Assembly: GCA_963726455.1 (NCBI GenBank)
Contig: CAVSCK010000004.1
Span: 1,735,676-1,799,675 of the forward strand
Direction: 5' to 3'
Length of the DNA: 64,000 bases
Source: an uncultured bacterium
GTDB lineage: Bacteria > Zixibacteria > MSB-5A5 > CAIYYT01
The notes beneath the pieces were generated by a model. That model searched no databases. It saw only the letters and a list, made by a program, of their open reading frames with translations, and was not told the origin of the DNA. Both the position numbers and the translations under genes were made by a program. Positions 54,812 through 59,678 of this stretch are shown here, piece after piece. Position 1 is the first letter of the stretch. Each line of letters begins with the position of its first letter.

Positions 54812-55990
54812 TCAGGTTCCAATCCGCCCTTTGAGGTTTGCAGCAGTGAACGGACCTGGCTCCGCTATTAACTTACGCGCCTGTTCAACCTGTCCCCAGA
54901 CGTTCCAAAGCAGCACTCCCCTGACTCTGCCGCTACTCAAGTAGTAGACCACGCCCTTCTGGAATTCTTCCTGCCAATCCTCGACCATCTCCAGCCGCGA
55001 ATCGAGTTCACCTATTGCTTCGTAACCCAAATCAAACAGGTCTGAATAGAAAAATGGCAAGTATTTGTACGCCCGTTGAGCGCCCGCCATGTTTGCGCCC
55101 GCCGCCCTGCCGCTGACATTCGCATTGTCTTCATGCTCGACTCGAATTCTCCTATTGAGATGGGGACTGAAGAAATTCGCCACGTCACCGGCAGCGTAAA
55201 TTCCCTGATGACTGGTCTGCAAAAACTCATCGACGAGAATGCCGTTTTCCACCTTGACACCGATTGACTCTGCCAATGACGTCTCCGGCTCGATTCCGAT
55301 TCCAGCCACGACACAATCGAATGTCCGTACACTTCCGCCGGACATCGTAATTACGAATTGCGAATTTCGCCGAATGAGTTTGGCGACTTTCTCGCCTGCG
55401 ATAATCTCTGCTCCCTTTGACTCAAAGTAGCCCGACAGAAATGCGGATAATCTCTTTGGATATACATGATCTCCCAGAGTCGCGCTGGGGAAGATCAAAG
55501 TTACCAACCTGCCGTTCATAGCCAACGCAGCCGCGATTTCCGAGCCAATGAATCCACCCCCGATGACGGCAACATGTTGCTCACCATTGCTCAGGTCACG
55601 CAATCTTTGATAGTCGTCCAGCGTGCGAAAATAGATTACGCCATCATCTGCAGACGACAGGCGCCGTACTTTGCCGCCAGTGGCGAGGAGCAATTTCGAA
55701 TACGTGTATGCAACTCCCCGGTTATCGGTCACTCGCCTGTTTGCCACATCGATGCCAATCGCAGTCGTCGACAAATGCAATTCGGCATGATCGGACGCAA
55801 ACGGGCGCCAGACCTTTTCAATTGGGTCCCCTTTCCATAGTCCTTTTGATAGCGGTGGACGGTTATACGGCGGGTGGCTGTCGCTGCTGATGATTCCGAT
55901 TGTCCCCTGTTGGTCGACTTCACGGATGCCCTGGACTGCTGCATCGGCCGTCATCCCGCCACCAATAATCAGGTACTGGTAGTCAGGCAT
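54812..55990 (-). CDS. FAD/NAD(P)H-dependent oxidoreductase (ferredoxin reductase/MDHAR-like)
   Basis: IIGGG, PPYNRPPLSKG, LLLATG, VIGGGFIGSE, IYAAGDVA, PFFYSD. Confidence 0.9.
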   Translation of the reverse strand: MPDYQYLIIGGGMTADAAVQGIREVDQQGTIGIISSDSHPPYNRPPLSKGLWKGDPIEKVWRPFASDHAELHLSTTAIGIDVANRRVTDNRGVAYTYSKLLLATGGKVRRLSSADDGVIYFRTLDDYQRLRDLSNGEQHVAVIGGGFIGSEIAAALAMNGRLVTLIFPSATLGDHVYPKRLSAFLSGYFESKGAEIIAGEKVAKLIRRNSQFVITMSGGSVRTFDCVVAGIGIEPETSLAESIGVKVENGILVDEFLQTSHQGIYAAGDVANFFSPHLNRRIRVEHEDNANVSGRAAGANMAGAQRAYKYLPFFYSDLFDLGYEAIGELDSRLEMVEDWQEEFQKGVVYYLSSGRVRGVLLWNVWGQVEQARKLIAEPGPFTAANLKGRIGT

Positions 55991-56068
55991 ATGCTCCTCC
56001 TTATGAATATGTTACGTGGTCTCTACCCTGCATCTTAGTGATTATCGCCTGGCAAATGCAGGAGATGT

Positions 56069-56097
56069 TTGCACGGTATGGCAGAACAGCGTATCTT
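56069..56097 (+). promoter_or_regulatory. Candidate selD promoter
   Basis: TTGCAC (56069-74), 17 nt, TATCTT (56092-97); ATG follows 11 nt later with no SD. Confidence 0.45.
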
Positions 56098-56108
56098 GGT
56101 CAGTCGTT

Positions 56109-57164
56109 ATGAAGAACAGTAAAGATGAGATATCGGTCAAGCTAACGGCACAGGTTTCCTGCGCCGGCTGAGCATCGAAATTGGGGCCAAAGTTTTTGGC
56201 CGAAGTACTAAAATCGTTACCGCCGAACTCGAACTCGAACTTGTTGGTCGGATTTGAGACATCTGATGACGCAGGCGTGTACAGAATTAACGATCGGCAA
56301 GCATTGGTGCAGACGGTGGACTTCTTTCCGCCGATCGTCGATGATCCATATTATTTCGGCCAGATCGCGGCGGCAAACGCCTTGTCCGATATCTACGCCA
56401 TGGGAGGCAAACCGCTGACGGCATTGAATATTGTTGCTTTCCCATCAAGCTCAATGCCGGGGGAAATTCTGGCCCGCATACTTAGAGGTGGCGCCGACAA
56501 GATCAAGGAGGCCGGTGTTGTCATCGTCGGCGGCCATTCGATCAAGGATAAAGAGTTGAAGTACGGCGTGGCAGCCACCGGAATTATCGATATCGACAAG
56601 ATCGTGAGAAACGTCGGCGCGCAGGCCGGCGACCGCTTGTATCTAACTAAACCATTGGGGACGGGCATAATCACTACTGCCCTAAAACATGATGCCGCAG
56701 ATCCGGCTGATGTCAGCGCGGCTACAGAATCAATGACACGCCTGAACGACAAAGCGTCCGAGCTCATGGTTAAATACTGTGCGCATGCGGCAACGGACAT
56801 TACCGGTTACGGGATACTCGGCCACGCGTACGAGATGGCAAGCGGCTCCCGGGTTACATTCAGTTTGACGTTCGATAAATTGCCCCTGCTTCCCAACGTG
56901 CTCCAATACGCAGAGGCGGGGCATCTTACAGGAGGCGCTTCAGCAAATCGCGAGTATCTGGAAGACAAGACAATGATTTCCAAAGAGCTGTCTGGTCCGC
57001 AAGTTGATCTTCTGTTCGATGCTCAAACCTCGGGTGGCCTGCTGATCGCGTTGCCGAAGGCAAGTGGTGACCTGCTGATGCAGGAGGCCATGTCTCTTGG
57101 CTTGTCAGTCTGGGAAATCGGCTATGTCGCTCCACAGGGAGCGTTCGCGATTGAAGTCGTTTAG
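56109..57164 (+). CDS. selD: Selenide, water dikinase, selenocysteine-containing (UGA at 56169-56171)
   Basis: In-frame upstream extension MKNSKDEISVKLTAQVSCAG-U-ASKLGP places UGA at the catalytic CxxC/U position; downstream SDDAGVY, TVDFFPPIVDDPYYFGQIAAANALSDIYAMGG, GGHS, LTKPLGTG, DITGYG, DAQTSGGLL. Confidence 0.93.
56185..56201 (+). promoter_or_regulatory. Candidate bacterial SECIS hairpin
   Basis: GGCCAAA-GTT-TTTGGCC, starting 13 nt after the UGA; the apical-loop G is 21 nt downstream of the UGA. Confidence 0.6.
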
Positions 57165-57185: not shown

Positions 57186-58673
57186 TCACTCGCCAAATAC
57201 CAGGGCTTGAAACTTGTGAATCACGGCATCCGGGTTCTTGTATGCGTCGCTCGGCAACCCCGCCTTCTCACATGTTTGCTCCAGAAACTGCGTGCGATTC
57301 CAGCCATAGTCCGTCGCCACCTGAGGCAGCAACAGGCCCCGATTGTTTCCGAGAGAAATCATGAGGCCATCGCGACCGACTTGGATGTCATCCAGCGACT
57401 CTACCTGCACCAGCGGCGTCAGAACCGAAATCTCAAGCTTTAGTTTCGGCACTTCAGAAGCGACGACCGGTACGAAACGAGGGTCCGAGACAGCCGCTTT
57501 AACTGCACAATCGGAGACCGTCTTGTAAAGCGGCTCGACTGCTATCGTGTAGCCGATGCAGCCGCGTAGTTGCCCATTCTCGTTCAGAGTGACAAACGCA
57601 GCGCCCGGTGCCTTGAGTCTTTCCGACACGTCGAAGTCAGGCACTGTTCCTTTGGCCAAGTAGCTCTCAATCGACCTGCGGGCAATTTCCAGGAGCATCT
57701 TCTTGTCGCCCGCCGACAGCGCGGTCGATTGCTCCTCAGGTGTCTTTTCAATCTGTCCCTGTTTCTCGGGATCAGTCTTCTTCGTAGGAGACGACGACTT
57801 GTAGATCGCGGCTGCAACATATCCGACCACTGTGGATTTGTCTCCGGTGATGTCACCGGAATCGCCATACCGCAATATCTTCACTTTGTCGGCGCCCATC
57901 GCCTTGGCGGCTTTCAGCACGGCAAGAACGGGGCCACCGCCACACATTTCCACCTGCCCCGTGCTCAGATATTGCTGAAGCTTCGCTATTTTGAATTTGT
58001 CCAGGCAGTCCATGCCCAGCGAATCCATTTTGTAGCCCTCTTTCGCCGGGCGATAATGTTGCCAATCCGAAGATGCGATCATAACTGAATGATTATCCAG
58101 CTTCAGGGATGCCAGAGCTTTCGCGGTGAGATCAATTTCCATTGCGCTCTGCGTTCCCATAACCAGCGGCACAATACGGAAATCCTTCAGTACCGTCTGC
58201 AAGAACGGAACCTGCACCTCCAGCGAATGCTCGCGCTCATGCGGTTGAGATGCAACTGCGAATAGTTCGTTGAATGCGAGAACCTTGTTGCAGAGAGAGT
58301 CGTCGCACGCAACGTTTCCCAATGGCGTTTTCCATATGATGCCCGGTCCATAGACCGATACGCCCTGGTATCGAACGTAATGCGATGGTCCACAGAGAAT
58401 GACCTTCTTAATGCCGGAATCTTGCAGGAGCTTGTATGAATATGCGGCCACCGGACCTGAGTACGGATAGCCCGCGTGCGGAACGACCAGCGCGATAAGC
58501 CGTCCTTCGATGGCCGGCTCGCTGACCTTGCCTAGAAACGACTCGACCGCTCCTCTCAATTCCGCGCTATCTGCCGGATAGAATTGGCCTGCCACCGCCG
58601 GCTGCCTTATTGTGGCGCTTTGTGAAACGGCAACGGCGAATATCAACGTGCAGAGTATCACGAATCTTTTCAT
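57186..58673 (-). CDS. amrB: AmmeMemoRadiSam protein B (Memo-like) fused to protein A (AMMECR1), with N-terminal signal peptide
   Basis: GGAGGAG RBS before ATG 58673; MKRFVILCTLIFAVAVSQS then RQPAVAGQFYP, PHAGY.YSG, GPSH, EHSLEVQ.PFL, SSD..HY, MCG; linker; then AAFVTL...LRGCIG, EISVL, GLLLPQV, KAGL. Confidence 0.92.
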   Translation of the reverse strand: MKRFVILCTLIFAVAVSQSATIRQPAVAGQFYPADSAELRGAVESFLGKVSEPAIEGRLIALVVPHAGYPYSGPVAAYSYKLLQDSGIKKVILCGPSHYVRYQGVSVYGPGIIWKTPLGNVACDDSLCNKVLAFNELFAVASQPHEREHSLEVQVPFLQTVLKDFRIVPLVMGTQSAMEIDLTAKALASLKLDNHSVMIASSDWQHYRPAKEGYKMDSLGMDCLDKFKIAKLQQYLSTGQVEMCGGGPVLAVLKAAKAMGADKVKILRYGDSGDITGDKSTVVGYVAAAIYKSSSPTKKTDPEKQGQIEKTPEEQSTALSAGDKKMLLEIARRSIESYLAKGTVPDFDVSERLKAPGAAFVTLNENGQLRGCIGYTIAVEPLYKTVSDCAVKAAVSDPRFVPVVASEVPKLKLEISVLTPLVQVESLDDIQVGRDGLMISLGNNRGLLLPQVATDYGWNRTQFLEQTCEKAGLPSDAYKNPDAVIHKFQALVFGE

Positions 58674-58757
58674 TGGACTCCTCCGGACTGATTCAGGCCC
58701 AAAGTGGTGCGGGCAAAAACCGTACCCCTTCCGCCAGTAAGGGTGTATATTCAGTAT

Positions 58758-59678
58758 ATGAGCCGGGTCGTTGTGGTCAAGTACATTGGCGACCAGCGAA
58801 ATCGCCCTCTTTCTCAATCGGATTACGAAATTCTTCTCAATTCCGCCTTCCTGACGCTTTCTGGTAACGGCGATTTGCAGGCCGCCATTCGAAAGTATCT
58901 GCCCGACGGTGTAGTTGGTATGAAGCCGAACTGCCTGGCGCACAAATGGAATGCGACGCCGGTGCCTCTTATCGACGCTCTCTCGAATCTGTTGACATCG
59001 ACCGGTTTGCGCGACAAAGACATTGTCGTCTGGGAGCGCAGCAACCGTGAATTATCTGCCTCCGACTACAAACTAAATGCGACCTCGACCGGTCGGCGCT
59101 GCTTCGGCACTGATGCCACCATTGCTGGCTATAGCAGCGATTTCTATTCGTTTGGCGAGGTCAACTCGTTGGTTACGCGCATCTTGACTGAAATCGTCGA
59201 CGTCAACATCAATCTGCCCGTATTGAAAGACCACTCCGTCGCGGGTTTGTCGGGCGGCATGAAGAATATGTACGGCGCTATCAACAACCCTAACAAGTAC
59301 CACGCCGACAACTGCAATCCGTTCTGTGCCCATGTCAATCTCTTGGAGCCGATTCGTACGAAGAACCGGCTGACCATTATTGATGCCGTGCGCGTCCAGT
59401 ACAATGGCGGACCCGGCTTTGTGGAAGACTATATCGCCTACTTCGGCGGAATCGTCGTAAGCGACGACCCGGTTGCCGCCGATCGAGTGGGTCTCGAAAT
59501 AATCGAGCATTTTCGTGCGGTTAACGGCTTGCCGACTCTCGATAGGGTCGAGCGTCCCGTGAAATACCTGGCGACGGCGGAGAAACTCGGCCTGGGGACT
59601 GCTGATATGAAGAAGATTGATTTGCAGGTTCTGTCTGTCGACAAAAGCGGTCGACATAACTCGGAGACACTATTCTAA
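58758..59678 (+). CDS. DUF362 domain protein
   Basis: GMKPNC, VVWER, LPVLKDH..AG.SGGMKN.YG, IIDA....YNGGP, DPVAAD; start placed at ATG 58758 (track start 58704). Confidence 0.85.
   Translation: MSRVVVVKYIGDQRNRPLSQSDYEILLNSAFLTLSGNGDLQAAIRKYLPDGVVGMKPNCLAHKWNATPVPLIDALSNLLTSTGLRDKDIVVWERSNRELSASDYKLNATSTGRRCFGTDATIAGYSSDFYSFGEVNSLVTRILTEIVDVNINLPVLKDHSVAGLSGGMKNMYGAINNPNKYHADNCNPFCAHVNLLEPIRTKNRLTIIDAVRVQYNGGPGFVEDYIAYFGGIVVSDDPVAADRVGLEIIEHFRAVNGLPTLDRVERPVKYLATAEKLGLGTADMKKIDLQVLSVDKSGRHNSETLF

Follow-up and report, generated by a model that had tools for sequence, protein, structure and literature searches.

The question raised by this locus is whether a gene for SelD begins at the start codon that ordinary gene calling assigns to it, or extends further upstream through an in-frame UGA that is read as selenocysteine (Sec, U). 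Within the window (the whole stretch of 64,000 nucleotides that was analysed), a mechanical list of open reading frames reports a frame of 327 amino acids running from a TTG at 56181 to 57164. The same frame is open upstream of 56181 as far as an ATG at 56109, with a single TGA (56169-56171) inside it. When this TGA is read as U, the selD product has 351 amino acids and the N-terminus MKNSKDEISVKLTAQVSCAG-U-ASKLGPKFLAEVLK, and across the UGA it reads MKNSKDEISVKLTAQVSCAG-U-ASKLGPKF. The coordinates of the gene, of its hairpin and of the related genes found elsewhere in the genome are collected in Table 1.

Table 1. Features of the selD locus (window positions) and of related loci (contig positions) in the same genome.
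Feature	Location	Strand	Remarks
selD CDS	window 56109-57164	+	ATG 56109; 351 codons including Sec21; stop TAG 57162-57164
20 codons 5' of UGA	window 56109-56168	+	missed by ordinary ORF calling; conserved in congeners
Cys18 codon TGC	window 56160-56162	+	read from sequence; clade-specific C-x-x-U arrangement
Sec codon UGA, residue 21	window 56169-56171	+	aligns with Cys17 of E. coli SelD
Lys24 codon AAA	window 56178-56180	+	counterpart of E. coli Lys20; AA invariant (columns 16-17 of the 60-sequence alignment)
bSECIS hairpin (predicted)	window 56185-56201	+	5' arm GGCCAAA 56185-56191; loop GUU 56192-56194; 3' arm UUUGGCC 56195-56201
tRNA-Sec	contig 3 131305-131394		Rfam RF01852, 70.9 bits; ARAGORN tRNA-SeC, anticodon TCA
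selA	contig 3 129929-131269		TIGR00474, 515 bits
selB	contig 3 128061-129908		TIGR00475, 303 bits; 632-aa open frame
HesB/IscA-like (probable selenoprotein)	contig 4 TGA 42234	+	GVG-U-SG; Pfam Fe-S_biosyn spans U
DUF1573/OS_HP2 (probable selenoprotein)	contig 4 TGA 603761	-	PG-U-GC-T
DUF1573/OS_HP2 (probable selenoprotein)	contig 4 604880-605566	-	PG-U-GC-T
DUF1573/OS_HP2 (probable selenoprotein)	contig 5 TGA 467839	+	PG-U-GC-T
Secreted thioredoxin-fold + TPR (probable selenoprotein)	contig 5 TGA 620151	+	W-U-V-W-C at CxxC position; thioredoxin domain spans U

The read-through protein scores far above the cut-offs of the selD family models, with 398.4 bits against the equivalog TIGR00476 (cut-off 125) and 351.9 bits against NF002098 (cut-off 299), and it contains both an AIRS domain (PF00586, 103 bits) and an AIRS_C domain (PF02769, 57 bits). 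In phmmer searches it aligned end to end with the E. coli SelD structure 3u0o (E 2.7e-73), and an end-to-end alignment was likewise obtained with the Aquifex SelD structure (E 2.5e-67); its identity to the solved structures is 42-47%. E. coli SelD is thus a full-length homologue sharing the AIRS and AIRS_C architecture. In the alignment to 3u0o, codons 1-20 of selD match E. coli residues 3-16, U21 falls on Cys17 and K24 on Lys20. The E. coli protein differs in carrying Cys17 where the window protein would have Sec21, and its gene is without a SECIS. Cys17 and Lys20 lie in the mobile glycine-rich N-terminal loop of SelD and are catalytically essential. We infer that 56109-57164 on the forward strand encodes a full-length SelD, with ATP-dependent selenophosphate synthesis as its predicted activity. 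The initial annotation had pointed out that a frame starting at 56181 loses the catalytic N-terminus, and the alignment bears this out, for such a protein would be without both U21 and K24.

The residues that the initial annotation had quoted as a CxxC/U motif, SCAGUASK, are indeed present. The motif that defines SelD is a different one, the glycine-rich loop G-x-G-[U/C]-x-x-K, and the cysteine at position -3 (C18-x-x-U21) is specific to the clade reading SCAG before the UGA and is not kept in all Sec-containing SelDs. Apart from this C-x-x-U arrangement, the loop resembles that of the Aquifex aeolicus Sec-SelD (PDB 2yye/2zod), a member of the same family with Sec at the same place in its G-x-G-U-x-x-K loop. 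The natural Aquifex loop, SSGUAAK, corresponds to CAGUASK in the window gene.

An alternative reading holds that the TGA at 56169 is a true stop, so that SelD would start at TTG 56181 as a protein of 327 amino acids lacking the glycine-rich loop, and the 20 upstream codons would be untranslated or form a tiny open reading frame. This is what mechanical ORF calling yields, and TGA is the commonest stop in this genome, ending 666 of 1730 long open reading frames. The latter observation argues against any global reassignment of the code, since TGA serves as the most frequent ordinary stop. Against termination at this particular TGA stands the loss of the counterparts of Sec/Cys17 and Lys20 that a start at 56181 would entail, and so does the behaviour of the codon among relatives. 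Homologous loci were gathered by a six-frame search of 40 genomes, supplemented with 80 loci from a scan of a species-representative genome collection. SelD was present in all 40 of the relatives' genomes (each more than 52% complete), and many carried genes with exactly one in-frame TGA. Across the homologous loci codon 21 is TGA in 92 cases and TGT or TGC in 26. Two congeners, at 71% identity, read MNNSREEITVKLTAEVSCAG*ASKLGPKFLVE, and because they keep MNNSREEITVKLTAEVSCAG, conservation at the protein level extends to the 20 codons that precede the UGA. Together with a covarying hairpin at the SECIS position and the presence of a Sec machinery, both set out below, this conservation makes termination at 56169 very improbable, and favours decoding of the UGA as an amino acid.

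The initial annotation had coupled the in-frame UGA to a downstream SECIS-like hairpin, GGCCAAA/TTTGGCC, with its loop G 21 nt past the UGA, and each of these elements was found where it had been placed. The hairpin has a perfect 7-bp stem that starts 14 nt 3' of the UGA and is closed by an A-U pair. Counting from the A of the TGA, the first base of its loop, G56192, comes 21st, which leaves 20 nt between UGA and loop; as a simple hairpin the element has a dG of -8.0 kcal/mol. A published model of the bacterial SECIS (bSECIS) specifies an apical loop of 3-9 nt, an upper stem of 4-16 bp, a G in the first two loop positions, mostly followed by G or U, a spacing of 16-37 nt between UGA and loop, and a minimum free energy of -7.5 kcal/mol or lower (PMC13188914). 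The selD hairpin lies within every one of these limits (loop 3 nt, stem 7 bp, G then U, 20 nt, -8.0 kcal/mol).

Folding of the single sequence gave no signal: 66 nt around the element (56160-56225) folded no better than shuffled versions (z = 0.37). A search of 55900-56500 against Rfam at permissive thresholds returned two matches at chance level only (E 3-8) and no matching SECIS family. Support for the hairpin must therefore be comparative. Among the relatives, the best simple hairpin 3' of the UGA had a median of -8.0 kcal/mol in the 92 Sec forms, compared with -3.2 kcal/mol for the corresponding hairpin in the 26 Cys forms (Mann-Whitney p = 4e-7). Sec-form hairpins occupy a few fixed spacings, with the loop starting at 18, 21 or 34 nt, and have loops of GUU, GGU or GGA; those of the Cys forms show no preferred position, and none is comparably stable. 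The GUU triloop, with its closing A-U pair and a constant spacing of 20 nt, is common to a clade of genomes labelled Zixibacteria or Ignavibacteria.

Covariation was analysed in an ungapped alignment of 60 distinct downstream sequences, taken from 62 Sec genes chosen from the spacing class of selD. Within this set 94.5% of the cells of the 7-bp helix are paired, and shifting the 3' partner by 1-3 columns lowers this figure to 21-57%. Compensatory changes on both sides were seen in five of the seven pairs (for example GC/CG, GC/UA/CG/AU and AU/GC), and the covariation score was reached by none of 500 column shuffles. Because the stem overlaps the G-P-K-F-L codons, protein conservation alone cannot account for the compensatory changes.

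The reference bSECIS bound by SelB, that of E. coli fdhF, carries a bulged U. No such bulge is evident in the window hairpin, which is shorter and simpler, with its perfect 7-bp stem, and whose binding by SelB is predicted. In common with fdhF and the bSECISearch model, it is a stem-loop that follows closely on the UGA; its small apical loop begins with a G followed by U (or G), and its spacing is inside the 16-37 nt range (PMC13188914).

Decoding of UGA as Sec requires dedicated factors, and the initial annotation had predicted a Sec-decoding trait (selABC) in this lineage. The genome to which the window belongs (3.64 Mb in 5 contigs) is rated 100% complete, and we located tRNA-Sec, selA and selB contiguously on one strand at contig 3:128061-131394. 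With this cluster present in a complete genome, an objection from missing selABC genes does not arise. The arrangement is that known for the Sec-SelD family, in which the bSECIS lies directly downstream of the UGA inside the coding sequence and selA, selB and selC are needed; the same holds here (PMC1794560, PMC4561486, PMC9312934).

It might still be supposed that a near-cognate tRNA, for Trp or Cys, reads the UGA, with the hairpin merely slowing termination. This reading is at odds with a complete selC-selA-selB set, with a hairpin that fits the SelB-dependent bSECIS model in having G then U in its loop, and with the position of the UGA at the very site where SelD carries its catalytic Cys or Sec; we consider it extremely improbable. 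Taken together, the alignment of the UGA with Cys17 and the covarying bSECIS hairpin 3' of it uphold the proposal that this SelD is itself a selenoprotein, and we are highly confident that residue 21 is selenocysteine and that the downstream hairpin is a bacterial SECIS. SelB binding to the hairpin, the actual insertion of Sec and the activity of the enzyme are predictions from this comparison. In the mechanism we propose, SelB with Sec-tRNA(Sec) would bind the hairpin (56185-56201) during translation, Sec-tRNA(Sec) would be delivered to the UGA instead of release factor 2, and translation would then proceed into the AIRS-fold body of SelD. The finished enzyme would convert selenide and ATP to selenophosphate, with which SelA would turn Ser-tRNA(Sec) into Sec-tRNA(Sec). 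Because SelA needs selenophosphate as its selenium donor, SelD would feed its own synthesis as well as that of at least five other selenoproteins.

A further explanation to be weighed is that the TGA results from a sequencing or assembly error, the real codon being TGC or TGT and the protein an ordinary Cys-SelD. The assembly does contain local frameshifts. Short stretches out of frame, with frame slips at their edges, were found in dnaA (contig 5 ~546081), in an Obg-like GTPase gene (contig 3 ~410176) and in an aminotransferase gene (contig 4 ~681066). The most conspicuous case is a second SelD, a fusion of a NifS-like cysteine desulfurase to a SelD with a catalytic Cys (GLGCACK), at contig 3 ~644140-646360. 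This fusion is intact at 734 amino acids in three congeners and is the sole SelD in most family-level relatives; in the gene here, seven insertions (1-2 nt each, all of them G or C) and no deletions break the frame. Since other genes show similar frame slips, the breakage of the fusion gene is probably an assembly error rather than a very recent pseudogene. The slips in housekeeping genes point to indel errors scattered over the 5-contig assembly and therefore call for caution with apparent pseudogenes of this genome.

Errors of this kind do not account for the TGA in selD, for those seen are insertions and not substitutions. TGA stands at codon 21 in 92 independent assemblies, including those of two congeners, and it is very unlikely that a substitution error should have hit just the codon at which 92 relatives have TGA. 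In addition, the selD hairpin is of the type found in Sec forms, and Cys forms have none of comparable stability. A search of sequencing runs returned only two metagenomes, sharing 6-7% of the sampled words and thus holding relatives at best. An erroneous codon is an explanation to which we attach very little weight, and we retain Sec at residue 21.

The initial annotation had expected other mis-annotated selenoproteins in this lineage. We performed three home-made genome-wide scans for coding frames spanning a TGA, based on codon/dicodon log-odds and a hairpin filter. Their output was noisy, and selD itself was not among the matches. Its first 25 codons past the UGA receive a non-coding score, and choosing the earliest in-frame upstream start may also have reduced the score of its upstream part. 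What the scans give is therefore a minimum list of the other selenoproteins. It has at least five more probable genes of this kind (a HesB-like one, three of the DUF1573/OS_HP2 type and a thioredoxin-like-TPR one; Table 1), and the expectation was thus borne out with five more genes whose TGA breaks ordinary ORF calling. For the HesB/IscA-like gene the best family is NF038090 (IscA_HesB_Se), followed by TIGR01911, both below their cut-offs. The three DUF1573/OS_HP2 '(seleno)protein' paralogues carry the published U-G-C motif and are adjoined by Cys paralogues, and in all three congeners the orthologues keep this TGA. HesB-like and DUF1573 proteins are listed selenoprotein families, as is thioredoxin in general (PMC9312934, PMC13188914). 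The TGA of such genes stands at known Sec positions, which adds to the case for Sec in SelD.

Two of the gene classes that had been named as candidates for interruption by UGA proved to be ordinary. Both molybdopterin oxidoreductases are free of in-frame stops, and no Sec-containing formate dehydrogenase was found among the two molybdopterin enzymes checked in the genome. The large subunit of the NiFe hydrogenase ends in DPCISC, with Cys. Its match at contig 5:100926 was one of several from the scans that were rejected as ordinary gene ends with another gene following in the same frame, in this case one resembling the maturation protease of this subunit; matches in dnaA, the Obg-like GTPase and the aminotransferase were rejected as local frameshift regions. 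Besides SelD, the selenoproteome seems to be made up of small redox, Fe-S and secreted proteins. A search of the genome for a tRNA 2-selenouridine synthase (SelU/YbbB) found none, so selenophosphate appears to serve selenocysteine only. Selenium would then be used solely through selenocysteine in this lineage of uncultured bacteria, the relatives of which carry the labels Zixibacteria or Ignavibacteria.

In a tree of 117 SelD sequences, at least eight switches between Sec and Cys are needed. The fused Cys forms make up one well-supported clade, apart from the stand-alone Sec forms, and those Sec forms that belong to this genus cluster with metagenome-assembled genomes (MAGs) labelled Zixibacteria and Ignavibacteria. 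We considered horizontal transfer of the Sec-SelD and dropped the claim, the tree mixing Ignavibacteria- and Zixibacteria-labelled MAGs whose labels look unreliable. Frequent exchange of Sec and Cys in SelD has already been described, as have NifS-SPS fusions (PMC4561486, PMC1794560). The second SelD of this genome is such a fusion, and the window gene is a stand-alone Sec form from another clade. As to why the genus should have two SelDs, it is conceivable, although we think it unlikely, that they share the work in a bootstrap arrangement. The Cys fusion, supplied with selenium by its own desulfurase/Sec-lyase-like domain, would produce the first selenophosphate at a time when Sec-SelD has yet to be made, and the Sec form, being more reactive and perhaps under the control of a C18-U21 selenenylsulfide, would take over once selenium is available.

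SelD is reported to be among the two selenoprotein families with the widest distribution in bacteria (PMC9312934). The finding is for this reason correct but ordinary and brings no new principle: nothing in it departs from the known system, the arrangement is long known and very common, and its novelty is low. Its practical value lies in correcting annotation, because in ordinary ORF calling the SelD frame is cut at the catalytic loop, and at least five more selenoprotein genes are split.

Two genes flank selD in the window. On the reverse strand at 54812-55990 there is a divergent gene of 392 amino acids that, judged by eye, has the look of a FAD/NAD-disulfide-oxidoreductase, and at 57186-58943, also on the reverse strand, a gene for a protein of 585 amino acids is convergent with selD. 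Neither adjoins selD in about 120 related loci, and there is therefore no conserved selenium gene neighbourhood; with adjacency in 0 of 120 loci, both were rejected as selD-linked genes. Within selD itself, GAACTC/GAACTT occurs three times in tandem at 56225-56242, encoding N-S-N-S-N. Because the congeners have AESNPN at this place, the stretch is read as a small repeat, particular to this lineage, in a surface segment that varies.
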